Shown here: one piece after another, positions 1-48,030 of the stretch
Position numbering within the stretch: position 1 is the first letter of the stretch
Layout of the letters: every line of letters starts with the position of its first letter
Virus record (IMG/VR): IMGVR_UViG_3300045988_065177
Span: 20,466 to 84,465 of that record
DNA length: 64,000 nucleotides
Reading direction: 5' to 3' (one strand)
Source: a virus
Program-made: the position numbers and the translations under genes
The notes under the pieces: generated by a model
Databases searched by the model: none
What the model was told of the DNA's origin: nothing
What the model saw: the letters and a program-made list of their open reading frames with translations, nothing else

Positions 1-111
1 TGCTACTTAATACCACATCGAATTGATTTATTTCTTCTAGCCTTATCATCAGCTAATTCGATGTTTTTCAAATCATACACTCGTTCGTGCAAATATCCTA
101 CACGTTTCAAT
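1..111 (-). CDS. DGR-type reverse transcriptase, N-terminal fragment; gene runs off the window start
   Basis: Minus-strand frame translates to LKRVGYLHERVYDLKNIELADDKARRNKSIRCGIK(TAG)... The segment VYDLKNIELA..ARRNK resembles the conserved N-terminal 'enL..A...a.kgK' motif of DGR and group II RTs. It lies immediately downstream, in gene orientation, of the DGR template repeat. No ATG in frame (a TTG or GTG start is possible). An in-frame TAG is present. Confidence 0.4.
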
Positions 112-250
112 TTTTTATATATTTCATCGGAAGCGTTCGAGAATTAACCTACTAACACCCTTCATTCAACACTACGTTATCTTTTGCCTAGAGGCAAGGA
201 TATTACTTAGCAAACTAAAAAAAAATAATAAAATGTTTCTAAATATATAA

Positions 251-348
251 TAACTCGACATTGGAATTGGCATTGCTGACGTCATTGTTAGAATTGAAAT
301 AGCTGAGACCTGCATTGCTGCCATTATTCGCGTTGCTGCCTACTAGCA
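251..348 (-). repeat. DGR template repeat (TR)
   Basis: About 98 nt, AT-richer copy of the VR sequences. Every mismatch against VR1 (452-549) and VR2 (29279-29370) falls at an adenine of the TR when read on the minus (gene) strand. The TR lies about 80 nt downstream of the stop codon of the VR1-containing gene. Confidence 0.7.
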
Positions 349-427
349 GTACTTTTTTGCCAATCAACGGTTTTTAGAAGTAATATCCTACGATTTATCA
401 TCTAAATCGATTTTTATATTGTATATC

Positions 428-1600
428 TTAAGATACTCTATTCAGAGTCCTGAACCCGACAAGGGAAGTGGCATTGCCGACGTCAGTGCCAGAATAGAAA
501 TAGCCGAGACCCGCAGTGCCGCCATAATGCGCGCGGCCGCCCACCAGCAGCGTGCGAAGCGCTGTGCTGCTTGCGTTGCAGTAATGGTAATCGCAAATAT
601 AAGTAGTAGCACTTCCTCCAACAGCGGATGGAATTATTTCAGCGGTTTCACCTAAGTCAAATGCCTTAATATAACCATCAGATGCTACTTCGTATCCTGC
701 AACGGTTTTCTCTCCAACTACGTCGGTAAATTCCGATACGTTAGTAGTTGTATAGACAGTGCTAATCTCATTAGCAGCTGCTCTCACTATAACTACTCCG
801 TCCAGGTTAGTCCAAATGTCTCCAAACGGATTATCGAACCCTCTCCAGCGAGGTACTTTAAATGTATGAGTTGCTACTGTATTTGTGCCATCTTGAGCTG
901 TACATTCTGGAATAACTAAATCTTTTACTCCAGTGAAGTTACCAAATTCATTGCAGTAACCACAAGGCGTAAGTGGATATGTTGCATTATATCCTGACCA
1001 ACTTGTAGCTGCGTTAGCCCAATCTGTAACTCCAGGTCCCAAACCCCCTTGATGATATCCATCCGCAGTTAACTCTGCATTATATGCAGCCTAAGAATTA
1101 AAATTAGCATATTCAATGACATAATTCCAGTAGAATATCCATTTGTAATATTCATAGCATAGCAATTCTGAACCAGCATTTGTTGCATATGTTCTCATAG
1201 TAGCTCTAGAAATATTAGTTCTAGGCTTTCCTAAATCACTTCTGAATATATCCTTAGTTTCTAATTCTGTAGTTAGATAATCATCGTAGTTAGCTCTATT
1301 TCCTCCACCTCTAAATGCAGTAGTAGTATTAACTACTGATACAGCTTTTGGAGTTGCGGAGACTGTGGTATCAACTGTACTTCTGTATGCATCTATTAAT
1401 AGTTCAGGAATTTCTACCCATGAATCATCAATTTTGACAGTAGAAGTTCTAACCCATCTTTTGTTTCCATCGCTGCCAGATTTTCCATAAAATTTAGGAG
1501 TATTAACTCTTACTGTTCCATCAGTTCCATCGAGCACAGAAGGAGTACTTCCATCTTCTTTGTAAGCCCAATCGTCCGGATATAAATAGTAATTTACCAC
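428..1600 (-). CDS. Tail-fibre-like DGR target protein, C-terminal part. ORFs 1091..1600 and 428..1042 are joined by a single in-frame TAG at 1091-1093. The gene continues upstream through more TAGs.
   Basis: The two listed ORFs are in the same frame, separated only by TAG and 16 sense codons. The C-terminus ...LVGGRAHYGGTAGLGYFYSGTDVGNATSLVGFR matches the GGxxxxGxxAGxxxx...GFR pattern of the CLec-fold/FGE-like variable regions of DGR targets. A GC-rich island (478-570) corresponds to VR1. The stop codon is TAA at 428-430. Confidence 0.5.
452..549 (-). repeat. DGR variable repeat VR1, at the 3' end of the tail-fibre gene
   Basis: Aligns base-for-base with the TR (251-348). The differences are confined to positions where the TR has A on the gene strand. 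It ends about 20 nt before the stop codon, as is typical for DGR VRs. Confidence 0.7.
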
Positions 1601-4600
1601 ACCGTTATTTGCTACACATCCTCTGTAAGCGGACTAAATAGGGAGGGATTTATGTAATAGTGGATTTCCTATTCTAGTAAGGATAGGAGAAGATACGGTA
1701 ATATCCCATTCTACTCCATAAGAGTATAAGTCTACGTTACTGCTTAACTCTGTGACTTGTTTGCTTAGACTCTATTGTTCTTTTTGTAATTCTTCCCAAG
1801 CAGTATTAAGAGCATTAAATTGTTCCTCTAACTTAGTACTAGTATCTGCCCACTATGCAGTCCCATCTTCAGAAAAGGTTAAAATCTATCCAAGTGTTCC
1901 TCCAGCAGGTATGTGTTTATTTCCAGAAGTAGTTGGGTGTACATAATTATTTGCATTATCTGCAATACCACTAAGTTTCTGTTTTTCAGTTTCTGTGTAA
2001 TTAGCTTCAGAAAGTCCTTTTCCTAATTCTTTATCTACCTTACTTTCCAACTCCGTTTTAGTAGCTAAACCACTTATATCCTAGTGTTCCTTTAAATAAT
2101 TTTCATCATTCTATAACTAAGACACTTTAGTTGGAATGGCACTAGATTTTGCATATGTCTAATCTATAACATTTCCAGAGCCATCATAGGTAGCCTTTAA
2201 GTCATATACGGTTTCTCCAACCTTTATAGATTTGATAGCTGCCATATTATTGTATTATTAAAGTTTCTTCTTCTACATTATGATCTATTCCTTCTATGGA
2301 GGCAGTTAAGTCTTCAACAGCTTTCTACAGTTCAGCCTTGGTAGCGTAGTTCTTTAATGTATCTGGGTCTATTCCAGATCCTCCTATATTTCCTCCAACA
2401 ACTTTTACTGGTTTTGCTGAGTTCTTAAACTACCCTTCAACCCAAATTGTTCCCATACTATTTAAAATATTAATTGTTCATTTTCTCCATCTACCTGTAC
2501 GTTACCAGAACCAGGCTATATTGCATCTATTTTCTTCTACAATTCGTCTACAGCAGCCTTTATTAATTCTTCCACCTCAGCTTTTGTATAGTAGCGTTCT
2601 GTCAGATATTCACTTCTGACATATCCTGTATCCTATATATCTTTTTCTCCATAAGTACAATAGTACGTATCGTTCTCTGTCTTATTATTTTCAACTAAGT
2701 CATCATAATCTGTTTGTGGAAGACATACCAATTTAGGAACCTCTTCTGTAAGAGCAACTTGCTTTCCAGATGCTAATAATCTATTGTCTTCTGTAGTAAG
2801 TTTAACAGAACTTTCAATAGTCTGTTCAGTTGTTTCATCTTCTGAACTTTCTCCAGTTGTTCCCTATTGTACTTCTTTTTCGACAATTTTCTAAATAGTA
2901 ATATCAGAAGTTTCTATAGAGGTTGATTTTAGAAGCTCTGTGCTAAATTCCTTAGAAGCGGCATCCTAATCTTCCTAATATTTCTTCTAGGTAACAAATA
3001 TAAAATCGTCATCACCAGTCTCGGGAGAATCTCCTCTTAAACTTTCTTTTGTCACATACTCCTCTGCTATCTAATCGGAAAGGTCGGTTAATGACTATTG
3101 AGTGGCGTATGTAGATTGAGCATTTTCTTTTGTAAGAAACTTTTCATCTACCTACGAGCTAGTGTAGTATGCTTTAATATCTTCTGTAGTAACGTAGCTT
3201 CCTAGTTTCTATAAACCAGAAACAATTTCATCAATCTATGTCTTTGAGTAATAATTAGTAGCAACCCAGGACTGATATTGATTGGTAGTATGATAATTCT
3301 AATCCAAATATTCCTTAGTAATATAAACCTTTGCATCATTTGTGACGTCATATACATAGTAATATGTATCAGGCTCTACCGTCCCTTCCTCTACTAACTT
3401 TAGATACTCTTCTTCAGTTAATGTTACTAAGTTCGGAATATCCGATTCAGTAGCAATCTAATCTTCACCTATAAATAATCCTTCAGACCTAACGTCTACT
3501 ACTAGCTAGCTCTCTCCCTCTACTACAGGAGATTTTATCTATCCAACAGTGATGCTTTCTAAGGAACCATCTCCATCTACCTTAAGAGTTTTATCTAACT
3601 CGTCTTGGATGGCCTACTAATCTTCCTCATATTCTTTCTTTGTAACGAAGACAAAATCATCTCCTTCCATTCCCTCTCCTCTAAGACTTTCTTTAGTAAC
3701 GAAAATATTGTCTGTTTCTTCCTTAGTATAATACTTAGTCAGGGATAGAGCTAAAGAATCATTAGAGACATAATTAGTAGTTAATTCTTCCAGTGTAGCA
3801 TAATCTGATAGGCTGGCAATAGTGTTATCTAAGTCTGTTCTAATCTATACTACAGTAGTATTAAGGGCCTTCTGTTTTAATTGCTCTTCTATCTTTTTTC
3901 CCCATTCCGCAGATAGGTAAAACTAGTCATCGTCTAAGCTATCCTCATATATATAATAATATGTTTCTGCATGAAGATATGTTTTATCTTCGTCTATAGG
4001 TTTAAAATCTTCTGTGGTATTTTTAGACCATTCCTTATATTCAGCCTCTGTACAGGTGATTATCTAAATAGATTCATAAGAAGCTTTCCAACCTTCTTTG
4101 TATTTAATCTTAGACTTATCTACTAGCATATAAATATTTCCGTTATCTATATTTGAAACGGTCATGCCTTGATAAGCATATTTCTCCGGAATAGAATATA
4201 ATTCGGCTAAATTATCGACTACTGTTCTATTATCAAGAGGTTTAGGAGTTTCTACGGTTAAAGCAACACCTAATGTAGCATCACCTGTATATTTAAATGC
4301 CATTATTGTGATAAAGTAAAGTTAATTTGATGAGGCAATGCTGAAGAATAAGTATCCTTCTTAGTCCATACTTTATAAGGAAATCCATTTATCTATTCGG
4401 TAGAAGTTTCCCAGCCACTTAAATCAACATTTAGGTATCCTAGTCCTCCATCTACTGTAAATGAATTTAGCTAAGTATTACTTCCAGGTAATTTTATAAT
4501 AGCTTTTCCACTTAATGAAAATGTAATAATTCCAGAAGATTGTCCAAATGGAACAAGACTCTATTTGATTAAACTATCTGTATTACCAGAATACCAAGGG

Positions 4601-5892
4601 TAGGTAGCAGTCACCTATGCTGTAGTTGATATTGAACCAGCTTCCACCCTCTTGTCTGTAACCTCTCCCTTGTTGTTAATAAGATATTCTCCAGCAGCAT
4701 AATTTACGGTACCAGAATGCACATAAACACCGATAGAATCATATGTTTCAGATTCTACAGGAGAATCATTATAGGTAATAGTTTCTTCTCTACCAGTTTC
4801 CTCTCCAGCATCATTTTTTATAAATGTTAAAGTAGGGGTAAGTAAAGCGGATCCTACCTCCACAATCTAAGAGGTGAAGCTATAATACAACTAAGGATAA
4901 ACCAAATCTCTAACAACAGTAGGAAATAATAGAGTATCTATAATCTCATTAAACGGCTTTCCTTTCAATTTTTCGACTGTAGTTCCTTGAATAACAGTAG
5001 AAGTAGTATCATCTGGAAGTTCAGTTTGATAAGTGGCTATAGTTTCTAAACTTGTCTATATATTTGTGATATTCTCAGTATTAGAATCTACTTTAGAATC
5101 AGTGTTCTTCTAAGCTTCCTATACTCCCTTAACTTCTTCCTTTACCTCTGTTAGAGATGGTTCCAGATCTTTTACATATATTCCGGGTAGGACTACTGTG
5201 GAAGGTTCTCCTTCCTCCTCTACTGGGGGGATTTCCTACTGAATCAGATGTATTGCATTATCCTCCTACTAGGATAGAATTACTTCTAGAGTATTATCAT
5301 CCTTTATTTCTATGGTTTTGGAGTTTCTCAGACTATTAGTTATCCAATTCTAGATGTTTTTGTCAACATCTATATTTTTGATAGACTCGTTAATATCCTC
5401 TATTGCCTCATTAATCTAGGTTATTTTCTCAGAAAGATTGTTTATGCCAGTTCTGTTAGATTCAATTTCTTCTTCGAGTTCTTCCTTAAGTACAGTAATA
5501 GAAGTTCTGATATTACTTATATCAACTTTTATTTCCTCTATTTCTTCTGTATTAGCTTCGTACTAACTTATAAAGAATAAAGCATAATCTAAGGCATCTT
5601 TTACAGTATTGATATTCTCTGCAACATCACTGGTATAAGTCCATTTCTATTCTATGTACTATACTAAATCTTTCTAGGCTTCTATAGTTCCTTCTATATT
5701 TCCCCAAAGAAGACTCTACTCATCAGCGATACCTAGATTCTTTCTAACCTTAGCTCTTTCTAATTCAGTTCTATATTCTCCAAGATAGTTGTTTCTTAGG
5801 AGAGGTATAGGTTCACTTTTTATTAAATGTCCTTTCTTTCCACAAGGCTTTATATCAGCATTGCTTACCGAAGTGTAAATAGGCTGTATCAT
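1601..5892 (-). CDS. Upstream continuation of the tail-fibre locus: one or more very large TAG-rich structural ORFs. Candidate ATG at 5890-5892, preceded by an AT-rich intergenic stretch.
   Basis: Only short standard-code ORFs are found here (4064..4303, 4615..4863). Hand translation of the minus strand stays open when TAG is read as sense, for example a TAG shortly upstream of 1600 then continues in frame. Plus-strand CTA triplets recur in frame. Confidence 0.25.
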
Positions 5893-6011
5893 TATGATTC
5901 AATAATTGCTATTTAATAAATTCGTGATTATCTAATTTTACGGGTAGGTTAATAAAACAAATTAGATTCAAAATATCCTAATAATCTGGTCTATATCCCT
6001 TTCTAACCCTT

Positions 6012-6776
6012 TTAAGGAAATCCTCATACCTTTTAATAGCCTTTCTTTTAAGAGCATCCACAACCTATATGTTTATGTTCATGGTGATTGTTGCAGAATC
6101 CACCGCAAGTACGGAACATTGCTAACAATCTTTCAGCTTCCATGAATTGTTTAAAGCCTATTAAATAATCTATAATATTAAGTGTCATCCAGATAAAATC
6201 TCTTGCAAATATATCTGCATCATGTTCTCTAGTTAAACACTTATTTAATGAAGAGTCAAAGAGTTTTTTACAGTAGTTAATATAGCACTATTGCAGATTT
6301 CCTGTAAAGAACACATCTACTTTACATTTTTTGATAGTAGTTCCTTCTATATTTCTTTCAAGGATTTCTTTTACAGTACATTCCTCTAGCTCTCCATCTA
6401 TCTCTTTATATAGTTTCTCCCCGTCAGTTATATAGATAGTTTCATAATACTCCTTGTATTCATCAGATGAATTTTCATACCATTTCATATTAGGAAGAAT
6501 TATGTGGTCTACTACATAATATCCATCTTCTTTCACCTTAAATGTACAAGAGTCTAAATCCTCTGTATGGTCATTGAGAAGTACGTCTATCAAAGTAGCA
6601 TCTCCTATACTAACTTTTATGATAGTATTTAGGGTAGCACTTTCACTATACTTATAAGAATCATAGGAAGTTACTACCTCTAAATCTTCATCAATATACT
6701 ATCCATATTCCTTTGAAAAGTCTTCAATAGTTATTTCCCCGTTAATCTGGGTATGTATATCAATACTAAATTCCAT
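6012..6776 (-). CDS. Hypothetical protein, TAG-recoded; includes listed ORF 6288..6593
   Basis: ATG at 6774-6776. The 6288 ORF terminates at TAG (6288-6290) and the same frame stays open down to TAA at 6012-6014. Confidence 0.3.
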
Positions 6777-9700
6777 ATTATAATAATTAAGACTCAGCAG
6801 TAGACCATTGACCATATTGAGCAGGAGTAGAAAATGGTTTCCACTTACCTTCTTGTCGTATACGTCTAGACATAAAAACTGAACTAAATGATAAACTAAT
6901 ATCTTGAGGATAGTCTGTCCATGTATATGACTAACCTTCAGGAGTCGGTGGTAGACTATTTAACTTACCAGCTAGTTCCCCATTCCAATAATAATTATAG
7001 TCATATGCTTTAGTTGGAGTAACAGTTGTTGTTTCATGTCCTTCCGAATCTACATATAAAGGATTTCCTTTCTCATCTGTTTTCTACTTATACTCAATAA
7101 CTGGAGTTATTCCCTCAGTTCTAGTGTATATATTCTAGATAATAGTAGAAACATCACTTGCTACAATCTCATAAATAGTAGTTCCCTGAGATTCATCAGC
7201 TCCCTAGAAAGTAAATTTAGTTCTTTTCCATATGTATGGATTCTCTTCAGTTGGAAGTTCGAAAGTATCAGTCCACTATTTATCAGATAATTTTATCTCA
7301 GATTCTTCAGCAGTATCAGCAGGTAAGTAATGAATCTTAATAATAATATTATTTACCGCTTCACTAGAACCAGAAAGGTCTGACACCTATTTAAATAGTT
7401 TCTTCAAATCCTCTTCCACATTTGATTTGGAACCAGAAGCATTACTAATAATCACTGAACCGTCTGAAATAGGATAAATCTATTGCTAATCCTTATTATA
7501 TACAATTGTTCCAGTTGCCATATTAATGTATTTGTCTTATTTTGTCATTATATGGATTTCCATCATGAAGCTAAGACAACTCTATTTCAGTTCTCTTTTC
7601 TTCTATATCCATTTGTCTATCTTTATATGTAGAATCAGATTGAGCTTTGAGCCAGTTAACCTTATATTCTAACTACATTTTCTGCTGTTCTAATCCTAAT
7701 CTCTACTCATCCAAACTTTCTATCTTCTACTAAGCTTTCTGTAGTTCTTGCTATAACTGCTATGCCTATTGTGAAGTTTCTTCCAGTTTTTCCTATAGCT
7801 ACTATAGCTAATTGTTTTCTTCTTTACGAATCTATACTGCTTTCTTAACCTTATATTTAAGGTCTGTAAGACTCTTAGCAGTTAGTGCTTCAAATATGAT
7901 GTCAGGATCCATTTGCTGACTTTTGACAAACTCTGGAATAATAGCTTTAATAGTTTGTAAATCCTCCATTACCTCAGAGCTAGAAGTTATATGGATGTCA
8001 TAATCAGTAACTGTGAAATATTCTGGAAGTGCTGTAAATATCTGCTAGTATTTATCCCCAAGTATAATAGTACCAGTTAATCCTTTCTTATATGTTATTT
8101 TAGCCTAGTTTAGACTATCCAATAATATCTCACAAGTGATTAGGTCCATCTACTAGAAATAATGCTTAGTTACTATGTAAGAGTTAGTAACACCTTGCTT
8201 AATATTAGTTACAGCATCGTGAGTTTCTATTCCATTTAATCTTTCTCTAAATACTCCAGTTATAGATGATGTAGTTTGTTCTACTGATTGAATTGCTAAT
8301 TCAATAGCCTATACAGCCTAAGCTTTTAAGGTATCATCAAATCCATTGTATATCTAGTTAGGTGCTTGCGCTCCGTCATTTCTCCCTTCCTAAGTAGAAT
8401 CAATCCACATGATACCACCCTTCTTGTATGCTAACCATTTCTACACTCTTTCTGGCCATTTTACGCCTAGGTTAGTAGGAAGCAATGACATATCCATGAT
8501 TACTCCAGCAGTACCGCTGTTAGCTATCAGGTTATCCCTATAATAATTTAACAAGTCATATCTATCCTGTAGATGTGCACACTTTAATATCAGAGAGTAC
8601 GGTTGTTGAGAACGATTTAAGAAATATACCCCATTTACAGACAAAGAGCAGAAATTAGGATTATCTTTTGACCTCATAACAGTCTTGTCTAGACCTCTCA
8701 GAATATATATTTCTTCTCCAATTCTAATGGTGTTGTATCTCTACATTACAAAATCGTCATCAGTTTCTATCCACTCTACATCATAAACAGGGATTAACTA
8801 AAATCTATGAGCACTATATTCATTATCTGGGTATCCAGGAATAGTTTCATGATTCTAGTCTTCATTTACTATAGTACAAGTGTCACCATAAACTCTTCTA
8901 TAAACTGCAGCTGAATCATCAGCTCTCCATTCATCTTTTAGTCTTTTCAAATCTTCTCTAGAGATTTCTTTTCCGTATTTAGCTAATATCTGGCTTTTAC
9001 TCATCCATTTTCTAACTACTACTCTGTACGAATTTCTAACATATGGAGATTCTGGATTCCTATCTACGAAAGTATTTAAAGGATTCAGAACTTCTATTTC
9101 TATGTTAGTTCCAGAGGATGATGATTTTACTCTGAAAAATGTATAGCCAGTAATTAATAAATCTGTAAGTAACTATCGGAGTTTAGTTATTAAGTCGGTT
9201 TCTCTAGACTGCATAATATAATGAATAATATTCTATGCAGCTATCTCATATTGAGAAATAAAAGACTAATCAATGTCTTGAATAATTTTATCTAACTAAG
9301 TCTTCACGGCTTTATCTGTAATATCTTTTCCGTCGATAAATTTCAGAATAGAATTACTTAAATGGTCTCTAAGAAATTTAACTATCCCTTTAGTTATTTC
9401 TAACTATTTTTCTCTGGTGATATTACTAATGGTATCTGAATCCTTACAAGAAATCTTCGGAAGGATAGGGGTTCCTAGATATTCCCCTACTAGAGCATCT
9501 ACGTGCTTTTTTAGTAATGGTGTAAATTCTACAGAAGTAGGACTACCTATTCCGAAGTTTTCTTCCAGGTAACGAAACTATTCTGGGTCTCTCTTTCCGT
9601 TATAGTAATTATAGGCTTTCTATAATTCGTACTTATCATATACAAGCTCCGCAATAGCCTCGTTCGTCTTGTCTATCAGTTCTTTTTCTTTCATAACATA

Positions 9701-9891: not shown

Positions 9892-11322
9892 TCAAGTCCA
9901 CCTATGTATTCCATTTTGTACAAGTCTCTCATATAACCTAGGATCACTTGTTTCAATTCTGTATGGGTCATCGTATTCATTTTTTTGTATGTTAGTTTCA
10001 AAAGTCTTAGAAGTTGGTATAACCCCAAATCTTTTGATTCCCCTCTCGTCGTAATAATAACCATAATCTTGGAATTGTTCAACTTCTTTTTCAACAAGCA
10101 CTGGCTATCTTCCTGACAATTCCTAGTCTGCCAATTCTGTCATTCCTACAGCGGCTACAATATCGAATTTACCTTTATTCTCATCATTATATCCAGTAAA
10201 TTGGTCTAACATTTCTTCAAACCATATAGTATGACAGAAATCCTCAATAAAGGCTGCAGTCAAATCAGTATGTTGTTCTATAATAGTTTTGGTAGCAGGT
10301 GTTCCATACTATTTAGTAGTTCCATTCTTAACGTCTGTTAGAGTAGCTCTAGGTCTTTTCATAAAGTAGTTTAAACAACCCTTTTCTCTAGCCCAGGTAA
10401 TCATACCTACACGGGTAGCTTCTATGTTTATTCTACAATTATAGTATCTAACTAAACACATAGCTATTTTATAGGCTTCTCTAATGTCATTAGGTCTGTC
10501 TTTATACATAGCAACATACTACGGTTCGTTTAGACCAAATGCTCTTCTTTTTATAGTTATACAGAAATCAGAAGGATCTCTTGTTTCTTTTGAAGTTTGA
10601 CTAGCTCCTATATCAATACCGTCTATTCCTGCAACATATAAATCATGCATTTCTTTGTACGCTGGAGATTCAAATTCTTCTCCCCTTTCCTCAGCTTCCT
10701 ATCTAAGTTTATCCATCTACTCTTTATACAAATCAGACCATACAGGATGTTCAAGTATTTTTACTTTTCCGTTAATATTAGGAATCCATTTAAAACCATC
10801 TATATTATCCTAGGTGTGTTTATTATTTTTATAGAAGTAGTCTATGTATCCAGATTCTGGTCTTGGTCCTATTTTCTTAAGTCTTATATTAGCTAACTGG
10901 TCCGCAATAAGAATCTTGTTGAACTTGTTAACACCTTCAAGATTAAATGCTTCTTCTGCATTCCAACATCGTTCGGCACACTTCTTTAGATAGTCGTCTG
11001 GAACTGCTAATAAATTGTCACGCTCTTCCTATAGATACTTTTTATATTCTACTGTATTACATACACCTCTATGGTCCATGTATTCTGAATTTAGAGACTA
11101 GACAAAATATGGAATGAAGAACCCACTTTCAATAGTAGTTCCGTCCTGTGTATAATTGTGTCTAAATGGAAGAACCTTGTAAGCTTTTGGATTGTAATAT
11201 ATCTTCTTAAGACCTGCTAATGGAGCACCCATATCTCCCGATGTGTTATCGTACAGCTTTTTATCCGTACTTCTATAGCTTCTTATTCGCTATAGTCCAG
11301 CATACCTTTTCACCCACTTATT
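9892..11322 (-). CDS. terL: Terminase large subunit, C-terminal nuclease-domain segment (TAG-recoded)
   Basis: Hand translation in the frame of ORF 9892..10101 gives ...YVAGIDGIDIGASQTSK...DFCITI...YVAMYKDRPNDIREAYKIAMCLVRYYNCRINIEATRVGMITWAREKG..., a typical RNaseH-like terminase nuclease signature. The frame is open from an in-frame TGA at 11323-11325 down to TGA at 9892, with several in-frame TAG. It includes listed ORFs 10309..10509 and 9892..10101. Confidence 0.4.
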
Positions 11323-11377
11323 TCAGTTGGGGTGTCGAACACTCTTGGGCATATTATATTTATTCAATGCCTATGCG

Positions 11378-12289
11378 TTACGATAACCCAAAGCCTTTCG
11401 CAATCTCTGAGTTTATCTCGGGATTAACATCACAGTCTTCCCCGATATTGCTCGATAATCTTCTAGAAGATTCCTCTTCTAGACGGCAGAACTCTAAAAA
11501 CTTTTCGTATTTTCTATCTAAATATATGGTAGCATTTTCATATAAATATCTAGCTAATCTTCTAGACGGTATATCGGAAAATTTTAATTCAAATGCTTGA
11601 TTAGTATAATTTTCAGTACTTTTATTTCTGATATATCCTTTATTAGAAAATAAACAATTTATTGAAGTTAAGAAAGATTTAGTACCTACTATCGTAAGTC
11701 TTGTTCTTAATTTATCACCATCTTTAGATATTGTTAAACATCCATCCCCGTCAACATAACCTCTAATAAAATGTAATATATTTACTGTATTTTTAAATAA
11801 TTTCAAATTAGGAAATGCCAGAGTTAATGACTTCTGTGGGACACATCCCAATCTATTTAATGTATTCCATAAATGCTTGTTGCGAACAGATAAGTGACAG
11901 AATTTAATTCCGTTAGTTTCTCCGATTCTAATTTCTGTTGTTAATTGAAGGAATTTTCTAAATTTCTCTAAATGATCCTTATCTTTTAAAGATAATCTTA
12001 TTTCTACTCTATTACCCTCTTTAGAAATATTTCCATCTGCATACATGAATCCTAACCAGTAGAACTATTCTTCTGTATTCATAATGTCAAAACAATTCTC
12101 ATTCAATCTACATTTATTTTGTTGGTTAATTATTTCATAACCCCATTTTTTAAATCTTTCCGATAAAGTTTGACGTTTAATATTATATTTGCTACCAAGT
12201 TTTGTCAAACTTCTTGCTTCTTCTGGAGTATTCAAATACTCTTCTAAAGCTTTTTTACAAATTTCATCAATTTCTCCACTTGTTCTCAT
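11378..12289 (-). CDS. LAGLIDADG homing endonuclease with N-terminal HTH domain; in-frame TAG at 12065-12067 joins ORFs 12065..12289 and 11378..12046
   Basis: Motifs W-LGF-MYADGNIS (motif 1, immediately after the TAG) and FIRGYVDGDGCLTI (motif 2). The N-terminal 74 aa look like a helix-turn-helix. The two listed ORFs are in the same frame, separated by TAG and 6 codons. AT-rich promoter-like DNA lies upstream at 12290-12394. Confidence 0.65.
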
Positions 12290-12394
12290 AATATAAAAAT
12301 TTACTAGTTATTATTCAACTATAATTAAAAATTTTATATATTATAAGTACTGGAGGAGTAATATTAAATTAGTGTAATTAATACGAAATTTTTA

Positions 12395-13423
12395 TTAAAG
12401 TTTTATTCTACCAGTACCTCCAAATAACATTGTTCCACGAGGTTTACCCTGAACTTCACAAAGCTCTTGTCCCTGCACTACAGCAGTATCTAGTCCAGGC
12501 CAGGACCCTGCTTCATCATATATTAATAAGTCAACACGGTCTCCACGAATATTAGATGCCTTAGCTCCATTTATTCCAACTACTTCTGATTTAAATCCAA
12601 CATCCTCAAACTGTCCGTTTACCTTAATCTGTTTACCGGACTTCTTTCTTAAGTCTTGGTCAATCAAGCGTAGTTTGAAGAATCCTCCTCCTGTACAAGT
12701 ATTCAAGAATGTTAAAGCATTATCAAACTTACTAAAAGTACCTTTAAGGAAGGTATCATTAAAACAGGTAATCATTACTCTGCTTCTTCTGATTACTGAA
12801 TACATTCTTGCAGATAAGGACGCATTTATTTCGGAGAATCCAATAGAACGAGCTTTCATAAGAGCTGCGTGTTTATGCAGAACTCTAGCCATCTACAGAT
12901 AATGAAAGAACATATAATGAGATGCGAAAAATATAGGAAAGTCACTACTTGTTCCTTCTCCGGATGCTTTGTTATCATCAATAATAGGAAGCTAGTAGAA
13001 GTTTAGGAAGAAATAGTTATCTCCAGTAATTGTATAACCATTAACAGTCATTCCATATTTACATCTTCTATACTATTCCTTCCAAAACTCATTATATCTC
13101 TTACTATCTTTTAGATATGGACAATACTTTCCAGTTTTTCTATACACTTCTCTGGTCTCAGTAAACCAATCTGGGTCGAAGTCAAGACCATGTGTTTCAT
13201 CTATTGGTCTATATCCAGTTATTTCATAAGATAAAGTAGGGTCAAATACCTCTATCTTATCTCCTCTTTTTACATCCCAATAATCAGCATTTTTGCCTCT
13301 TTCCTCTCTTATCTTCTATACTAGTTCTCTAGCTTCTTTGGCATCCTCTTTTTGTTCTTTCTCTCTTACCTAATCTACTATATTCTAGATTTCTTCAGGT
13401 AATATTTTTTTCTTTCTAGGCAT
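12395..13423 (-). CDS. terL: Terminase large subunit, N-terminal ATPase segment (TAG-recoded), ending at TAA 12395-12397
   Basis: Listed ORF 12395..12892 (..DLLIYDEAGSWPG.., Walker-B-like) continues upstream through TAG at 12893-12895 and further in-frame TAGs to an ATG near 13421-13423. The hand-translated upstream part is ...YRRCKYGMTVNGYTITGDNYFFLNFYQLPIIDDNKASGEG... Confidence 0.4.
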
Positions 13424-14805
13424 AATTAAAAGTCTCCTGGGTCAAAGCCGTCTGTAGCTCCACCTCTTACAGTAGATTGTTCTGTAAGCTCTTTCTTAAC
13501 CTGCTCTTCTAGTGTTACTAATTCTTCATGAACTTTATGAAGAGTAGCCATTTCTTTCATTACCTTTTCAGCTTGAAAGACGGGTTTGCCATTATTATCA
13601 CGTTCATTTAAATCTACTATAGTATCAAAATAATCAATAAACTAGTCAGCTGCTCTTTTAGCTGCTTCTAGAAGTTTTATTGATTTGTTAGAATCCTACA
13701 ATGCTCGGTATTTTCTACAGGCTTCCCTGAATAACGGGTCATTAAATTCGGATTCAGATAGTCCAGAGTCACTAATAGCTTCATCATGTCTTTCATGTTC
13801 TGAATATTGGCTATAGGGACTCTTCCAATCAATAGCTAGATAAATGTAAGATAATTCTCTAGTTACTCGTTCCTTGTCAACAGATTTATCTCTCTGTATC
13901 AAAGCCTTAAACTCTTTAACTAGAAGAAGCTCTGGTTCATTTATCTCTAACTATTTAGTTAAAGTGTTATAATTAAATACATTCATACTCATCAATCATT
14001 AACATTAACATCTTTAATCTTTTTATTTCATTTTAGAACCGCATTTACTTACTTTCATTTTAGAACCACAAGCATCCTTCTTAGCATACTTTGTTCTATC
14101 TGGAACCCATTTTCCATTTTTGAAATTTCCCTTGTGTCCCCTATTTGCCATGACCTCCTAGTCATTATATTTATTAATGGACACAGAATCCCTAGATGCT
14201 TCATCCTTTGCAGATTTCATATCCTTTTTATACTAAGCTCTTCCAGCTTTGAACTTGTCAACTTCATTAGCTTTCTTAGTAACCTTAGTTCCTTTCTATG
14301 CTTTTTGGCAAGCTTTGCAGATTCTTCCTCCCTGTTTAAAATAAACAAGTTCCTCTCCTTCTGGGCATACTCCTTTTAATTTTTTATAGTATTCTAGTTT
14401 AGCTCCAAGTCTAGCCATAACTCCGCCTTGCATCTTCTACATAAATTCTTGATACTTGGCTTTAATTCCATCTTCTCCAAGCTATTCAGCGTAAGCCTAT
14501 AAATCTTGCTCTGATTGTAATTGTATTCCTTGTGCTTGGGCATCTTGTATCAAGTATGCCATGAATGCCTTCTGTAATTCTTCCTAATTAGCCATTACTC
14601 TTCTACTTTAATTAAATCCTTTGTATTAAATACTGCTTCCTGCATTAATCCAGAATCAGTAAACCATCTACATCTTAGTCCTCGTAATCCTTGGTTATCT
14701 TTAAATAAAGCTGCTTCTCTTCTTAGAACAAGCATAACTGGAGAGTGCATTACTTTACACTACCGTAAAGTAACACAATCCCCAGGCTTAAAATAAACTT
14801 TTTCA

Positions 14806-15423
14806 TCAATTGTTTCCATGCTTCAATTCGTCTCTTCTTTCAGTTAGTTTCTCATTAACTACAGCCATGATTCTATTCTCATTAACTACTACAAATCCTA
14901 GTTTATAGAATGGAACCATACATTCACTAGCTATTGTATAAAATACAATATCTCCAGGCTTCAAGAACTCACACTTGTGTCCTACTTCTATCACAGTTCC
15001 TACTTTAATAAATTGTTGTTCTTCTTCAATTTCTCCAGTCTCATTAGATTTATAAGTAGGAGTAAATCCACCTAAATCAGTAATAAGACCGCTTTTAGTA
15101 GTTTTTATTTTTTGGAATGGGTTTTGTTCAAAAGGTTTAATTAATGCATACCCATACATCGGCATAATTTCAAGTCCATTCATATTGTTAGATAATGACT
15201 TAGCGTAATCCTCTAGTGCCTGATTATGTTTAGAGAATTTATCTTCTAACTCATCTACTGCGGTATTAAACTTCTCTTGTTTTTCTCTTAATAATGTTCG
15301 GTCTGCAGCCTCTCCATTTAAAATAAAATGTTCTCCCGTACCTTCCATTCCAGTTAATGATAGTGCTAGTTTTTCGTTACTGTTTAATTCTGTTCTTAAA
15401 GTTTCCATAATCCATTTTACCAT
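14806..15423 (-). CDS. Hypothetical protein; C-terminal region with possible GroES-like fold
   Basis: Intact standard-code ORF. C-terminal ...GLITDLGG...IKVGTVIEVGHK..LKPGDIVFY.. is weakly reminiscent of a co-chaperonin beta-barrel. Confidence 0.3.
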   Translation of the reverse strand: MVKWIMETLRTELNSNEKLALSLTGMEGTGEHFILNGEAADRTLLREKQEKFNTAVDELEDKFSKHNQALEDYAKSLSNNMNGLEIMPMYGYALIKPFEQNPFQKIKTTKSGLITDLGGFTPTYKSNETGEIEEEQQFIKVGTVIEVGHKCEFLKPGDIVFYTIASECMVPFYKLGFVVVNENRIMAVVNEKLTERRDELKHGNN

Positions 15424-15803
15424 TTACATAAATCACAATGTTCATCTTCAATTCTTGTTTTATTCTCTAATATACAACCACATTCATCGCACACTTCCCC
15501 AACAGATGTTTGTAATTTATGGGAACAAGCGTCACAAATTTTTAATCTTTTGGTTGCCAAATCTTGGTTTATTCCGAATATATTGAAATATATACTTTTC
15601 AATATTGTTAAAGGTTTAGTAAATATTGCTTTAATCCATTTCCATATCATATCTTCCTCCTTTGTTTCCCTATTTATATTTTGGACAGTAAGTATATAAT
15701 GCTTATCTGGTTTATATAATATAGGAGTTCCATAGATTACCATTTCCCTGCTGGACAATGTTTCTTTTCGTTTGGAATCTTCTTCTCTAGTAAACATCCA
15801 CAT
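15417..15803 (-). CDS. Cys-rich zinc-ribbon protein
   Basis: C-terminal CDACSH...CDECGC...HCDLCKW. It partially overlaps the next ORF, which ends with a similar C-rich ...HCPAGKW motif. Confidence 0.35.
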   Translation of the reverse strand: MWMFTREEDSKRKETLSSREMVIYGTPILYKPDKHYILTVQNINRETKEEDMIWKWIKAIFTKPLTILKSIYFNIFGINQDLATKRLKICDACSHKLQTSVGEVCDECGCILENKTRIEDEHCDLCKW

Positions 15804-15952
15804 CCCTTTATATACCCTTCTTTAGGGCTTATACTTATATCATTATTCTTTGGATTTAGATACAAATGCCCATTACATAATCCATTATCTTGGTCACATA
15901 TTGGGCAGCGTCTACATATCTCAAATCTTTCTTCTATTTCCTCTAGTGTCAT
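15737..15952 (-). CDS. Cys-rich zinc-ribbon protein
   Basis: CRRCPICDQDNGLCNGH...CGCLLEKK...HCPAGKW. Confidence 0.35.
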   Translation of the reverse strand: MTLEEIEERFEICRRCPICDQDNGLCNGHLYLNPKNNDISISPKEGYIKGCGCLLEKKIPNEKKHCPAGKW

Positions 15953-15954
15953 AA

Positions 15955-16869
15955 TTAATATTCAATACGTTGACGTTTTCTTTTATTTTCTGCCAATATA
16001 GATTCCTTCTTGTAGAAGGCTAGCATTTTTATAACCTCATCTTTTAGGTATGGCAAATGATATACTGTCATATTGTCATTATGATCGAAATGTACCAAAA
16101 CCAAATCCTCTATTTCAAACTCTGGATTTTTCTTTTGAATCATCCAAGCATAAGTACTTAATTGTAAAGTATAGTGCCAGTAATTAACATCATCTAAATT
16201 ATTTAGAGGATATTTCATCTTAACAGAAGTTTTGGTTTTAGAATTGAAGAAACTCTTAGTTTCTATTTTCTTATTGGTCTTCCAGTCTCCTATAATTATC
16301 TTATTTCCCCTTTTAACTAATAAGTCAATCTGTCCTGCTATTCTGAGCTTTCCATCATCCGATACTCTAGATATTAAATACTCAGGATATACACCATTCT
16401 CTAAGTCTAATTCATTGTGGTCTTTTATACACTCGAACTTGCCACCTATTTGATATTTACTAAGGTCTATGTTCTGTTTCTTTTTATAGAAAGAGTTTTC
16501 CAAATCTGCATGGATTTTAGTTCCCCTCTCGCATGAGTTTCTATTCTCTAAATCCCAAGCATCTAAGATAGCTTGTTGCTCTTTATTAAACTCGTCTTCT
16601 GTAATGTTATGAAGTTCAAGTAGAACTTTATCAAATTTCTTAGTGTTCAACAAAGACTTTTTTTCTATAGCCCAATCTTCTTTAGGTAAGAGTTTCTCTA
16701 GTGCTTTATATGCTGACCAGAACTCCTTATCAAATGGTTGGGTGAAAGAATGAATTAAAGTCGTTACAGATATAAACTTCTGTTCTGGCTTTGTAACATC
16801 ATAATAAATATGAGCTTCTTCCTCAAAAGCTATGTTCCCATTTTGTTTTGTAATTTTACTTTTGTCCAT
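15955..16869 (-). CDS. PD-(D/E)XK family nuclease (recombination exonuclease / Cas4-like fold)
   Basis: Motifs GTKIHADLE, QIDLL and IIGDWKT are consistent with D...(D/E)xK catalytic core spacing. The ORF is intact in standard code. Confidence 0.5.
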   Translation of the reverse strand: MDKSKITKQNGNIAFEEEAHIYYDVTKPEQKFISVTTLIHSFTQPFDKEFWSAYKALEKLLPKEDWAIEKKSLLNTKKFDKVLLELHNITEDEFNKEQQAILDAWDLENRNSCERGTKIHADLENSFYKKKQNIDLSKYQIGGKFECIKDHNELDLENGVYPEYLISRVSDDGKLRIAGQIDLLVKRGNKIIIGDWKTNKKIETKSFFNSKTKTSVKMKYPLNNLDDVNYWHYTLQLSTYAWMIQKKNPEFEIEDLVLVHFDHNDNMTVYHLPYLKDEVIKMLAFYKKESILAENKRKRQRIEY

Positions 16870-17671
16870 TAGTCATAATTCATTTAATCATTTATCACAT
16901 TTATCTATATTTATTTGATACTTTTCAAGTATATTAATATTCTTTGTAAGATACAAATGAATAAATAATACATTATATTAAAAATGTCTAACAGTAAGAA
17001 AATTACAACATTTGGGTGTCCAATTTTCAAAAATGGGTCGGGCATTCACATTAAAGAGAAGAACAGAGGCAAATTTACAGCATCTGCCAAGGCAGCAGGA
17101 GAATCTGTACAAGAACACGCTAAGCATGTACTAAACAATCCTAACGCTACCCCTCTTTAGAAGAAGCGAGCTAATTTTGCTAGGAACAGTAAAAAGTGGA
17201 GGCATTAGGAAGGTGGGATAATGCAAGCTGCAGCAGGTTTAGTTCCTATATATGGAACTTATTTAGATTACAAATAGTTTAAAGACAATCCTTCTTGGGG
17301 AAATTTTGGTAACATGGCTTTAAGTGGGGTGGGGTTGGGGATGTCCTACAACTAACTGGTTTAGGTTATGGCTTAGGTACTGCGATTAAAGGGTTAAAGA
17401 CTGCAAACACAGTTAGGAAATCGGCAAAAGCTATATAGCCGCAAGAAATGCTACTCGATTGGCAAATTAGAAGAAAATGCTAGAAAGAGGAGAGGTCGGA
17501 AAAAGAGCCTTCTAGGGTTGGGTGCAATCTGGAAATAATTTAAGAAGATCTAACTAGAAACTAGATAAAGCAAATCAATAGAGAAATAGAGCTGCTAAGA
17601 TTTTTGGAATAAGCTTAATTGAGCCTTCAATAGAGGGTTTCTAGATATATAATAATTTTAAAAATTAATGT

Positions 17672-18322
17672 ATGCCTTTTAAATCAACTTTAGTAAACTG
17701 CAAATAGTGTGGAAGAGAATTACCCCTCAATAGAACTTATTTTCGTAGAATAGTTACTAACAAAAAGGAACATTATTCAGAAATATGCAAAGAATGTGAA
17801 AAGGAAAATAAGGTAAACTAGGAATGGAAAGATGGCAAACTTAGATGCCATATATGTGGATAGTATAAAGATGAAAATTGCTTTCCTATTAGTGGTCATT
17901 ATATATACAGAAATTATAGAGATAGCAGATGTACAAAATGTAAAGGAATACAAAATAAGAAAGCTAAAGATAGATACTCTGATGAGAAAAGATTACAATA
18001 CGTATTAAATAGTAGACTATTAGCTGCCAAGAATAGAGCTTCCTCAAAAGGTATTGAATTTCAACTCTCCCTTTAGGATTTAACTAAATTATGGGATAAG
18101 CAAGGTGGAAAATGTGCAATTTCAGGAATACCTATGACATATGAATTGAATTAGGGAAGGGTGTTTTCTAATGTGAGTATAGATTAGGTTGTTCCAGGAA
18201 AAGGCTATATTCCTGAAAATATCTAGCTTGTCTGCATGGCTGTTAATTAGATTAAATCTGATTTCGATATGTAGACAGTTTTGTATATATGTAAACAAAT
18301 TATTAATAATTATGATACATAA
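17672..18322 (+). CDS. His-Me finger (HNH_3-like) endonuclease with N-terminal zinc ribbon; about 9 in-frame TAG codons
   Basis: Hand translation from ATG 17672 gives ...CKECEKENKVN(TAG)EWKDGKLRCHICG(TAG)YK...LWDKQGGKCAISGIPMTYELN(TAG)GRVFSNVSID(TAG)VVPGKGYIPENI(TAG)LVCMAVN(TAG)IKSDFDM(TAG).. and ends at TAA near 18320. The pattern G.CAISG...S.D..P..GY...N..LVC...N..K is HNH-like. Confidence 0.45.
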
Positions 18323-19614
18323 GATAATATAGAATTTTAGAAAGAAAAGAAATGCTTCTAAATGGAAACACGAAGATGGAGCTAAGATACATAAACCAAG
18401 TGGACATAGATCTATTCTAGATAATGGATGGATTCCTACTACTAGATTAAAGAAAGGAAATTATGGATTAATTAAAACAAGAAAGCAATGAACGCTGTAG
18501 TTAAATTAATTAAAGAATTTATACTTAAGATATATCTTTATTTACTATTTATATTTAATAAGTAATATGGACTATAATAGAGCAACTCTTTATGCGGCTA
18601 CTGGTCGTACTTTATTACTCCCTGGCTGGAAAGGGTATTTTTATTGGGACTATACTAAGAATGAATTAAATTTTAGAAATGGAGACTATCATTTAGATAA
18701 CAAATAGCTCAAGGAGAAAGGAGTTATGGAACGTAATGATTGGTATTATATAATATGATAATTAAAAATAATATTATACCGTTTGGAGGTTATAAAGTAA
18801 TTAATCTGTTTGGATTAATATTTACTAAGTCGGATTTGACTGATGAGGATAAGAATCACGAGAATATCCATTCAGTATAGATTTTGGAATGTGCAATAGC
18901 GTTTGCAATACTTATATCTATATTATTTGGATTAGAATGGGTATGGTTAGCTATTCCATCTTTCTATATCTGGTATGGATTAGAGTATTTAATTATACGA
19001 CTATTAAGACTTAAAGATTCTCAAAATGATTGCTACAGAGATGTAAGCTTTGAAGAAGAAGCTTATATGAATGAAGACAATTTACAGTATCTAGAAGGAT
19101 AGAGAAAGATGTTTTCATGGATAAAATATCTAAAAGTTAACGCATAACAAAATAGGCGAGCCTAGACTTAATTGTCTAAGTTCGCCTATTTTTATTTACT
19201 ATTATACGTACAAGTGATTCTGTTTGGCTCTTCCCACCAAGGTTTATCTGAAAGTGGAGTTCTGATGCTATTGGGCCAATTTATAATTGGAGTAGTTTCC
19301 TCTACTATAGCCTCCATTATTTTAAATAATGTATCCAAGTCTAGCTCTGGAAGCAGCTCATGAATATTAGTTATTGTTTTCTTATAATTTATCATATCCT
19401 TTAAAAGTGTTGTTAATAATTACTTTCTCTATCGTAGTATCTACTGACATATTAGTACGATACACTTAGCTTATTTAAGTTGTCTAGATAATCTAAGAAC
19501 CATTGTTCGTTTTGTTTTCCTTCTTCTACAATAGTATTAATTAAAGATTCTGTAGCTAATAGTGTTATTTCTGCTAGTTCCTCTAATTCCGATTTAGTAA
19601 GTTCGTTATATTTT

Positions 19615-19929
19615 TCAATCAAGTTTAACATAATCCATCCAGTCTTTTATATATGATTTACATTCTTCCAAATCTGGATAGATACTTGCTATAGTGCAAC
19701 CTGTTTTTGGATTCTTAAAATGATGGAGTTTTGCTTCCTCATTTTTCTCCTCTTCTATATTTCTATTTAATGTTCTATTCCAGTAGTTGTATTTCTCATC
19801 TAGCATTTCCTTATCACACTCCTCCAATATTTTCATATTGGGATTACCCATTATTTTGTCATACTTTCTTTTTAAATTAGAAACTTTGACAACATCATTA
19901 CCATTCAATACGACTGCACACTGTTTCAT
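19615..19929 (-). CDS. Hypothetical protein
   Basis: Intact ORF, 104 aa, no TAG. Confidence 0.4.
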   Translation of the reverse strand: MKQCAVVLNGNDVVKVSNLKRKYDKIMGNPNMKILEECDKEMLDEKYNYWNRTLNRNIEEEKNEEAKLHHFKNPKTGCTIASIYPDLEECKSYIKDWMDYVKLD

Positions 19930-20153
19930 TTCACTACTTTATAAGTACATATCTTACCTATCTGCTTTCCTTGAATACTTACTTGTGGAAGAAAGTAGCA
20001 GGCTTGATTCTCAAATTCTTGAGGTACAAATATGTAATCAAATCTACATCCAACTACCTTATCGCAAACTTTATTCCAATCATCTCCCTCTTCAATAATA
20101 AGGGTCTTAGCTCCTGTTGGAGTTACAGCATAATTCTCATTTAAATTTATCAT
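19926..20153 (-). CDS. Hypothetical small protein (start trimmed to ATG at 20151-20153)
   Basis: The listed ORF 19926..20228 has an N-terminus that is just translation of the suppressor tRNA gene. The first ATG downstream of the tRNA gives MINLNENYAVTPTGAKTLIIEEGDDW... Confidence 0.35.
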   Translation of the reverse strand: MINLNENYAVTPTGAKTLIIEEGDDWNKVCDKVVGCRFDYIFVPQEFENQACYFLPQVSIQGKQIGKICTYKVVK

Positions 20154-20170
20154 AACTATTAATTTTGGCG

Positions 20171-20242
20171 TTGCCCTACTAGGATTCGAACCTAGACTAA
20201 ATGATTTAGAGTCATCTGTGCTGACCATTACACCATAGGGCA
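20171..20242 (-). tRNA. Amber suppressor tRNA, anticodon CUA (reads UAG), derived from tRNA-Gln
   Basis: Minus-strand sequence TGCCCTA-TG-GTGT-AATGGTCA-GCAC-A-GATGA-CTCTAAA-TCATT-TAGT-CTAGG-TTCGAAT-CCTAG-TAGGGCA-A folds as a canonical cloverleaf with anticodon loop CTCTAAA (34-36 = CUA). Its D-arm, T-arm and 4-nt variable loop are nearly identical to tRNA-Gln(UUG) at 33541-33612. Confidence 0.75.
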
Positions 20243-20389
20243 GTATTTATTTCTCTTTTAGAGATTTATTCTCTGCTGCCAATTTCTCTAGTTCTTTCCT
20301 TAGCTGTTCGTTTTCGTGAAATAAAGCCTGCATAGTTGCATTTACATTAGCAAGAAGTATTCTTATTTGAGCTATTTGTTCATACATAT

Positions 20390-20796
20390 GCTTTCAGTTG
20401 TTCTATTTTCATAGTTACTACATTAGATAATGCCATTCTGAATTTAGTAATTCCAGCTCTTACTGATTCCAATTTTCCACTTTCCAAACATTCTTGAATT
20501 TTATTCAGTTCGGACTCCCCTAGATATTCGCAGACATCTATAAATAAATCATCATCTAAAGATTCTAAGTATTTCTGGAATTTGCCTACTTCTTCATTAG
20601 CTAGACAGCTTTCCTCTTTCTATCTTTCATAAGATATTAATAAGAATAAAGAATCATCTGTAGATTCCGCTTTAATGGTTAGGCCATTACTTGATAGATA
20701 ATACTACTAGTTCTTATTAATTGCATCGACGAGATTCTTAAACTCGTCCTAATTTAGTAATGTTTCTAAGTCTGTAATCATAATTGTTTCTTTTTT
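20390..20796 (-). CDS. Hypothetical protein, TAG-recoded (about 4 in-frame TAG); boundaries approximate
   Basis: ATG at 20794-20796. Hand translation gives MITDLETLLN(TAG)DEFKNLVDAINKN(TAG)(TAG)YY... and stays open when TAG is read as sense. Confidence 0.25.
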
Positions 20797-21096
20797 AGTT
20801 ATATACAACAATACCTTCTGAAAAGTTAAATACAAAGTTAAAAAATTCTAATTCTAATATTATACATATTTCATTTAGTTATCAGTAAATGGGTACAGGT
20901 ACTTTATATAAATAGCCCCTGGGGGTTTAATAAATTCGGAATTTATACAGGTGAAAGTTACCTAGATTCCGAAAATTATATGAGAGACTGTTATGGCGGT
21001 CCACAACCCCCTTAGTCCCCCCCTGTATATTGATATAAAACTAAAACAAAAACAAAAGTAACTCACAGTATTAACAAATTAAAAATTTTTAGTATT

Positions 21097-47990: not shown

Positions 47991-48030
47991 GATAGATAAA
48001 ATGATTATTAACTAATTTAAATTAAGAAAA

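Follow-up and report, generated by a model that had tools for sequence, protein, structure and literature searches.

Why should the first 20.8 kb of a phage sequence seem almost devoid of genes, and how could such a sequence be translated? The question is raised by a stretch of 64,000 nucleotides from the IMG/VR virus record IMGVR_UViG_3300045988_065177 (positions 20,466 to 84,465 of that record), hereafter called the window. An original prediction, made from the sequence alone, had noted that the standard-code open reading frame (ORF) track is nearly empty between 1 and 20.8 kb, and had proposed that the late genes located there are written in an amber-reassigned code in which TAG is a sense codon. 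The track is indeed close to empty: in genetic code 11, only 34.6% of positions 1-20800 fall within open frames of 100 codons or more, against 91.2% when genes are re-called with TAG as sense, the rise in coding density that the proposal implies, and positions 20801-64000 are covered to 75.8% already in code 11. With TGA as sense the coverage of 1-20800 barely changed (39%) and this codon was rejected as the reassigned one; TAA was rejected as well, since reading it as sense merged genes without yielding homologous products. With TAG as sense, long ORFs follow one another along the minus strand between 428 and 14819, a smaller group occupies the plus strand at 16984-19147 and a further gene lies at 20380-20781; recoded genes are thus present on both strands of the late block, as had been claimed. 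The individual in-frame TAG codons that had been cited (1091-1093, 12065-12067 and 12893-12895, all on the minus strand) are where they were said to be. On the evidence set out below, UAG is a sense codon in these genes and corresponds to glutamine (Gln), and the overall explanation that we regard as very probable is that UAG in the late genes is decoded as Gln by suppressor tRNAs which the phage itself would supply, with late translation occurring upon suppression.

The codon counts carry the first part of this explanation. The 20 late genes counted (5365 codons) have TAG in frame 145 times, which corresponds to 2.7 per 100 codons and to 55% of all Gln-equivalent codons. The same genes contain no in-frame TAA or TGA, whereas their off-frames hold 494 TAA and 309 TGA (803 together), and pseudogenes and sequencing errors are therefore excluded; equally frequent in-frame TGA or TAA had been named in the original prediction as the sign that would point to them. 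The idea that pseudogenes, or errors of sequencing or assembly, make up the late block, which the block's appearance in code 11 as a graveyard of short ORFs might suggest, has a vanishingly small chance of being right, given that just one of the three stop codons is affected, that the interrupted genes encode the essential portal, terminase and tail proteins, and that the same pattern recurs in dozens of independently assembled contigs of 175-192 kb.

Moreover, the read-through products are recognisable proteins, and profile searches matched tail, portal, large terminase (TerL) and endonuclease profiles across TAG positions. The portal gene (7523-9694, minus strand), with 32 TAG codons, matches phrog_6547 (1e-47) and Pfam P22_portal and has full-length homologs of 723 aa. 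TerL is divided into two exons on the minus strand, whose boundaries were set from intron-less relatives: exon 1 (12410-13423, 6 TAG) lies in an ORF (12395-13423) that matches positions 77-333 of phrog_6681 (1.8e-23), and exon 2 (9892-11238) lies in an ORF (9892-11322) that matches positions 329-726 of the same family (1.3e-32). The gene for a tail fibre or tail protein (428-2245, minus strand, 9 TAG), which is also the target of a diversity-generating retroelement (DGR), matches phrog_5302 (2e-85) over residues 117-601, across TAG. Together with a His-Me endonuclease gene of 9 TAG codons, matched by phrog_1035, these are the products that had been expected to become recognisable with TAG as sense (tail fibre, terminase and His-Me endonuclease).

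For the region after 21 kb, the original prediction had claimed that no gene contains TAG in frame. This is trivially true of ORFs called in code 11; what is informative is that the region is fully coding in code 11 and that its genes hardly ever stop with TAG. The stops of 62 early plus-strand genes are TAA in 49 cases, TGA in 12 and TAG in one (53, 13 and 2 in a looser ORF set). The single TAG belongs to a gene resembling ribose-phosphate pyrophosphokinase (Prs) and is directly backed up by TAA in a tandem stop (TAGTAA, verified at 55621-55626, plus strand); as had been noticed, no other well-supported early gene stops with TAG. Taken literally, the claim fails for one gene, an HNH endonuclease gene at 26168-26554 with two in-frame TAG codons (see below). 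In several further ORFs that become longer when TAG is translated (37456-38247, 45534-46193, 48754-49260 and 57263-57715, and 22821-23390 and 24478-24894 on the minus strand), the parts with TAG appeared by eye to be non-coding leaders or spurious antisense frames; none was counted as a recoded gene. The code-11 region also bears on whether the host itself uses code 15 and the phage simply matches its host, which is extremely unlikely. Nothing in the window supports such a host: code 11 suffices to read about two-thirds of the window in full, where TAG is avoided within genes as well as at their ends, the suppressors are encoded by the phage itself, and the predicted hosts of its group are Prevotella, Bacteroides and Phocaeicola (PMC12386605, Table 1), which are standard-code bacteria (Borges et al., bioRxiv 10.1101/2021.08.26.457843; also established knowledge).

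Which amino acid is read at TAG can be approached through relatives that do not use the codon. For this purpose 80 IMG/VR loci encoding portal relatives were fetched, and 41 of them were analysed codon by codon at the DNA level, because the Q that database proteins do show at these positions could merely mirror the code table of the gene caller. The portal genes of these 41 loci contain between 0 and 35 TAG codons and essentially never TAA or TGA; 15 relatives, at 53-62% identity, have no portal TAG at all. At the 32 columns that hold TAG in the window, 282 of the 480 cells of these 15 TAG-free relatives are Gln (59%; the background Gln frequency is 6.8%), with each other residue at or below about 8%. 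Gln is the majority residue in 22 of the 32 columns and invariant in seven. When all relatives are considered, the codons at these columns are CAA (464), TAG (259) and CAG (156); since CAA is two mutations away from TAG, the columns reflect synonymous codons rather than codons that are mutational neighbours. The original prediction had given the amino acid as probably Gln, and this assignment is well supported by the standard-code relatives.

The same assignment follows from the tRNAs that would decode UAG. Two candidate suppressor genes with the anticodon CUA were detected by ARAGORN and Rfam: Sup1 on the minus strand (20170-20242; Rfam tRNA score 69.5 bits) and Sup2 on the plus strand (22621-22691; 43.9 bits), the latter with a divergent scaffold. 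Both adjoin the divergent region (~20.8-21.1 kb) between the minus- and plus-strand blocks. The likely parent of Sup1 is the phage tRNA-Gln(UUG) gene (33541-33613, plus strand; called by ARAGORN): the two are 77% identical, with the same D and T arms and with compensatory changes in the acceptor stem; the identity and the shared arms indicate that Sup1 is a duplicated tRNA-Gln with an altered anticodon. It was found, with CUA, in every relative whose flank extends to the Sup1 site, including those in which Sup2 has the anticodon TTA. In Escherichia coli, supE (glnV) is a tRNA-Gln with the anticodon CUA that inserts Gln at UAG, competing with release factor 1 (RF1). Sup1 stands in the same relation to the phage tRNA-Gln(UUG); as a difference, its acceptor and anticodon stems have also changed relative to those of the parent, and it is known here from its sequence.

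Decoding of UAG as an amino acid other than Gln is very unlikely. With Sup1 a paralog of tRNA-Gln it is strongly disfavoured for that tRNA, and neither the prevalence of Gln at the portal columns of standard-code relatives nor CAA as the commonest alternative codon fits with it, even though Tyr, Lys, Glu, Leu, Ser and Trp all have codons one mutation away from TAG. Peters et al. 2022 (PMC9523058) likewise report metaproteomic evidence for TAG read as Q in crAss-like phages. In favour of another amino acid, ARAGORN labels both suppressor tRNAs 'Pyl', a name that it gives to any CUA anticodon, and Sup2, at most 49% identical to the other tRNAs of the window, might carry another amino acid. Pyrrolysine itself was rejected, as the TAG positions are Gln-like and Sup1 is Gln-derived; no Pyl-related family turned up in any scan.

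Beyond the suppressors, the plus-strand region after 21 kb contains an array with 23 ordinary tRNA genes. One ARAGORN call in it, a tRNA-Ser at 38443-38524 (plus strand), has the unusual anticodon ACT. The published tRNA list for the sister genome described next has no Ser at this position of the array, and the call may be a mis-call or an atypical tRNA.

To which phages does the window belong, and was their recoding already known? Over 12.4 kb of the late block and the switch region, the window has ~97% nucleotide identity to OMGK01000003 (locus L227), which was retrieved by a metagenome scan and is listed in the Supplementary Data of Yutin et al. 2021 (PMC7886860) with a length of 191,811 bp, the code 'TAG|q', the assignments zeta and zeta_4, and Sup CTA. 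The likeness to crAss-like recoding that the original prediction had drawn is therefore exact. With OMGK01000003 and the other circular zeta_4 genomes (Yutin et al. 2021, Nat Commun 12:1044) it has in common the tRNA order, the Sup(CTA) and a genome of ~190 kb, as well as two features described in that work, namely recoding restricted to late genes and recoded intron ORFs. OMGK01000003, by contrast, has neither the TerL intron with its LAGLIDADG gene nor the His-Me cassette of ~1160 nt that are found in the window. The table of Yutin et al. gives one Sup tRNA, whereas two tRNA(CUA) genes were found here, in the window as well as in OMGK01000003. Late-gene amber recoding of this phage species is already published.

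The window (GC ~35%, with 25 tRNA genes according to ARAGORN) is evidently part of a Zeta crAss-like human-gut phage of ~185-192 kb, in the zeta_4 subgroup of Yutin et al. The contigs of its relatives measure 175-192 kb, and the features by which Zeta genomes are recognised were all found (145-192 kb, a large tRNA set, introns or inteins, DnaB and SNF2 helicases and an AAA ATPase). Among named phages, only crAss-like phages and Flavobacterium FpV phages have a related TerL, at 22-29% identity in pairwise comparisons, which agrees with a deep branch related to crAss-like phages, and no close annotated relative at the DNA level was found in the GenBank phage collection. A Zeta clade described by Babkin et al. 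2025 (cthgQ11, ctoVY1, 3717_85572 and ctHMy13; PMC12386605), with genomes of 176-189 kb, ~27 tRNAs and a GC content of ~34.7%, resembles the window in its CTA suppressor, its amber suppression and its DGR with a tail-fibre target; it also shares gene ends at which TAA follows TAG, and amber codons within reverse transcriptase (RT) genes, which were reported there for seven Zeta DGR RT genes. Placement of the window beside this clade is based on these shared features.

The late block is not recoded uniformly, and this is where the original prediction has to be amended: it holds for the 20 genes counted above and does not extend to two TAG-free islands. The first (14806-16869, minus strand; 0 TAG in 637 codons) comprises a GroES-like gene (14806-15423; phrog_3188 GroES, 2.4e-6), a zinc-ribbon gene (15417-15803; 0 TAG) and a gene for a PD-(D/E)XK nuclease (15955-16869; Pfam PDDEXK_1). 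The second (19192-20165, minus strand) comprises four small genes that are TAG-free by codon count. At the TAG rate of the late genes, both islands (946 codons) would lack TAG with P ~6e-12. Among 13 recoded relatives, which have 57-95% portal identity, the PD-(D/E)XK gene has 0 TAG over ~300 codons in every case, and TAG is present in the portal and in both TerL exons of all 13; in the sampled genomes, the partition is conserved gene by gene. All three genes of the first island (GroES-like, zinc-ribbon and PD-(D/E)XK) are TAG-free both here and in the 13 recoded relatives, which suggests that they must be translatable before or independently of suppression.

The mechanism that would account for these features can be outlined as follows. 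The virion, packaging and tail genes are written with UAG as a glutamine codon, and the decoder would be supplied by the phage in the form of Sup1, the duplicate of tRNA-Gln(UUG), and of a second, fast-evolving tRNA(CUA), Sup2. Sup1 would presumably be charged with Gln by the glutaminyl-tRNA synthetase of the host. Replication and auxiliary genes, together with a few genes of the structural block, do without UAG and almost never use it as a stop, and can therefore be read alike with or without UAG suppression. As the suppressor tRNA accumulates, it would outcompete host RF1 and allow full translation of the UAG-containing late genes. The LAGLIDADG, His-Me and HNH endonuclease genes and the DGR RT carry UAG as well, and these mobile endonucleases and the RT would therefore also depend on suppression.

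Some points weigh against this explanation. The role of the partition as a timing device in infection is, here as in the literature, deduced purely from gene content. Early and late genes are not cleanly split either, since the late block includes islands that lack TAG and the early region an HNH gene that carries it. Sup2, as mentioned above, might carry an amino acid other than Gln, and no release factor or aminoacyl-tRNA synthetase was seen among the ~45 window proteins scanned. The last point is also one of two in which the window is unlike the infection-cycle model of Borges et al. (bioRxiv 10.1101/2021.08.26.457843), which covers crAss-like, Lak, Agate and Jade phages: no 'code-change module' was found among the scanned proteins, and the recoded genes of the window lie on both strands, with TAG-free genes interleaved. 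In other respects the window is like that model: the alternative code is used for structural genes and the standard code for replication genes, suppressor tRNAs are phage-encoded, and there is a recoded homing endonuclease in the early region, for which Borges et al. report a counterpart in an early gene.

The alternative that survives best accepts that the recoding is real and denies that the partition is a timing switch. The partition would then be a by-product, or would mainly serve against the host or against superinfection through read-through of TAG-terminated host genes. As a by-product it might have arisen by AT-driven loss of TAG stops, followed by capture of a suppressor and then by drift of CAG and CAA to TAG in tolerant genes. 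Impairment of host proteins by read-through has been proposed by Yutin et al. 2021 (PMC7886860), many Zeta phages have a tRNA(CUA) without recoding (Table 1, PMC12386605), the range of 0 to 35 portal TAG codons among relatives points to rapid gain and loss of the codon, and the missing code-change module fits here as well. This alternative is compatible with the mechanism outlined above and differs from it on purpose only. However, the same genes (PD-(D/E)XK, GroES-like) stay TAG-free and the same genes stay TAG-rich in relatives down to 57% portal identity, which argues for selection on which genes carry TAG. We therefore consider a partition without a role in timing possible but rather unlikely.

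The mobile elements that carry UAG deserve a closer description, beginning with the insertion of 1171 nt in TerL (11239-12409, minus strand). It is lacking in 98%-identical relatives as well as in OMGK01000003, in which the flanks are adjacent, and it contains an ORF for a LAGLIDADG endonuclease (11378-12289, minus strand, 1 TAG) that matches phrog_4645 (7e-48) and Pfam LAGLIDADG_3. Without the insertion TerL is continuous over 786 aa, which is the length of TerL as called in a relative. A U precedes the 5′ junction and the insertion ends in G; no Rfam group I match was obtained at E<=1 in 11100-12600. The insertion is probably a group I intron that harbours the LAGLIDADG gene; an intein was excluded, because the 1171 nt are not divisible by 3 and there are stop codons inside. 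A 66%-identical insertion was also seen at about the same TerL site in a distant standard-code relative (L055).

The second recoded endonuclease that had been predicted is present as well. The His-Me or endonuclease VII-like gene (17672-18322, plus strand, 9 TAG; phrog_1035, 2.9e-26) sits on a segment of ~1160 nt (~17188-18347, plus strand), which also has a 63-codon ORF and is absent from OMGK01000003 and from all sampled relatives. If this segment is taken as an intron, the joined flanks do not restore the uninterrupted ORF of OMGK01000003; its ends show a short imperfect duplication of flanking coding sequence (…ARN.KW.H…). In the early tRNA array, the HNH/zinc-ribbon endonuclease gene (26168-26554, plus strand, 2 TAG) matches Pfam HNH_3 (3.5e-6), with a DUF2116 treble clef over residues 2-32. 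Homologs can be aligned through the stretch with TAG, and at its second TAG column they have CAA in 35 cases, CAG in 11 and TAG in 7. Most of its homologs in other phages were seen to carry no TAG.

The DGR RT, which had also been named as recoded, lies almost entirely outside the window. Only ~37 codons of its 5′ end are inside (1-143, minus strand), and the gene leaves the window at an in-frame TAG; its assignment comes from extension into relatives, as there was no RVT_1 match among the scanned window proteins. The translation (KLKRVGYLHERVYDLKNIELADDKARRNKSIRCGIKq) corresponds to the N-terminus of a 425-aa ORF in two relatives (L008 and L014), which matches Pfam RVT_1 (2e-18), shows IGNYLS(TAG) and YADD, and contains 9 TAG codons, one of them as the Q of the GxxxSQ motif. 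The amber codons are thus confirmed in the RT of relatives, while the window itself covers its beginning. The template repeat (TR; 252-349, minus strand, 98 nt) and the variable repeat (VR; 453-550, minus strand), the latter at the 3′ end of the tail-fibre gene, were found by direct local alignment. All 20 mismatches between them fall at TR adenines (20 of 30 A), and a generic repeat search missed the pair because adenine mismatches break its seeds.

The surroundings of Sup2 raise a further question. A RAGATH-14 RNA (Rfam RF03145) occupies 22398-22591 on the plus strand at full length, with 183.3 bits against a gathering score of 149.1, and ends 29 nt upstream of Sup2. IMG/VR and a metagenome collection were scanned for the conserved 5′ core of RAGATH-14 and then for a tRNA-like gene 25-30 nt downstream. 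Such a gene was present in 26 of 30 evaluable IMG/VR loci, with the anticodon CTA in 12, TTA (ochre) in 10 and a damaged anticodon loop in 4, and in 25 of 35 evaluable metagenome contigs (CTA in 10, TTA in 12 and a damaged loop in 3). The orthologs of Sup2 show compensatory stem changes, and CTA and TTA both occur on the same scaffold. Toggling of the anticodon was seen in L169, L170, L177, L178, L180, L182, L185 and L188, and also in L191, L192, L194, L196-L198, L201 and others. All loci with the RAGATH-14 5′ core (L161-L232) apparently belong to one phage lineage of ~190 kb. In relatives with an ochre (TTA) Sup2, no in-frame TAA was found in the portal gene.

In three loci (L199, L211 and L215) RAGATH-14 and Sup1 are kept and the downstream tRNA is lost, and RAGATH-14 is therefore not merely a tRNA leader. 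No description of an adjacency of RAGATH-14 and a suppressor tRNA was found in the literature searched, and its position upstream of Sup2 with its variable anticodon is the only item found here to be undescribed. A speculative reading, which we hold to be doubtful, is that RAGATH-14 and the downstream tRNA form a conserved unit, placed at the head of the plus-strand early region in zeta_4-type phages, in which the RNA element would set the strength or timing of the code switch through processing or level of the tRNA; this would follow if RAGATH-14 were co-transcribed with Sup2 and controlled it. A UUA (ochre) anticodon would read both UAA and UAG, and on this reading termination at UAA, the main stop of these phages themselves, would be weakened as well in some members of the lineage.

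The other genes of the late block can be listed briefly. On the minus strand, a gene without assigned function (2462-4303; 613 aa) has 22 TAG codons, with 21-35 in the orthologs of relatives, and is followed by a gene with 19 TAG (4303-5892) and a weak tail-protein match (phrog_788, 1.7e-5). Codon counts give 2 TAG for the gene at 6048-6815 and 8 for that at 6787-7521. Three genes at 13426-14819 have 3, 7 and 1 TAG, with a match to phrog_16390 for 13426-13992. The plus-strand group at 16984-19147, which includes the His-Me gene, and the gene at 20380-20781 (minus strand, 4 TAG), the first of the minus-strand block, are recoded by codon count as well.

Among the products of the plus-strand genes after 21 kb are DnaB-like and SNF2-type helicases, AAA ATPases, two SPFH proteins and an OmpA-like protein. 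The SPFH/Band-7 genes contain degenerate tandem repeats of 33 nt (11 codons), rich in Ala, Glu and Lys, at 31896-32540 and 52150-52260 (both on the plus strand). A NAMPT-like gene (phrog_448, 4e-180) lies beside the ribose-phosphate pyrophosphokinase-like gene (phrog_619, 1e-52) at 53246-55626 (plus strand), and we take this pair to resemble the phage NAD+ reconstitution pathway NARP1 (Namat and Adps). A segment of 474 nt at 47557-48030 (plus strand) has no convincing ORF in either code and no Rfam match; the TAG-sense frame at 47553-47888 is not protein-like.

These results mean for annotation that genes in this region have to be called with code 15 or a multi-code gene caller; with code 11 alone, the portal, terminase and tail genes break up into fragments. 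Biologically, the recoding itself adds nothing new, since the species is catalogued as TAG-to-Gln and the pattern of the group has been described in detail. The conserved TAG-free PD-(D/E)XK and GroES-like genes within the structural block point to selection on which genes carry TAG. The module of RAGATH-14 and a variable suppressor would give a functional context to an orphan Rfam family.

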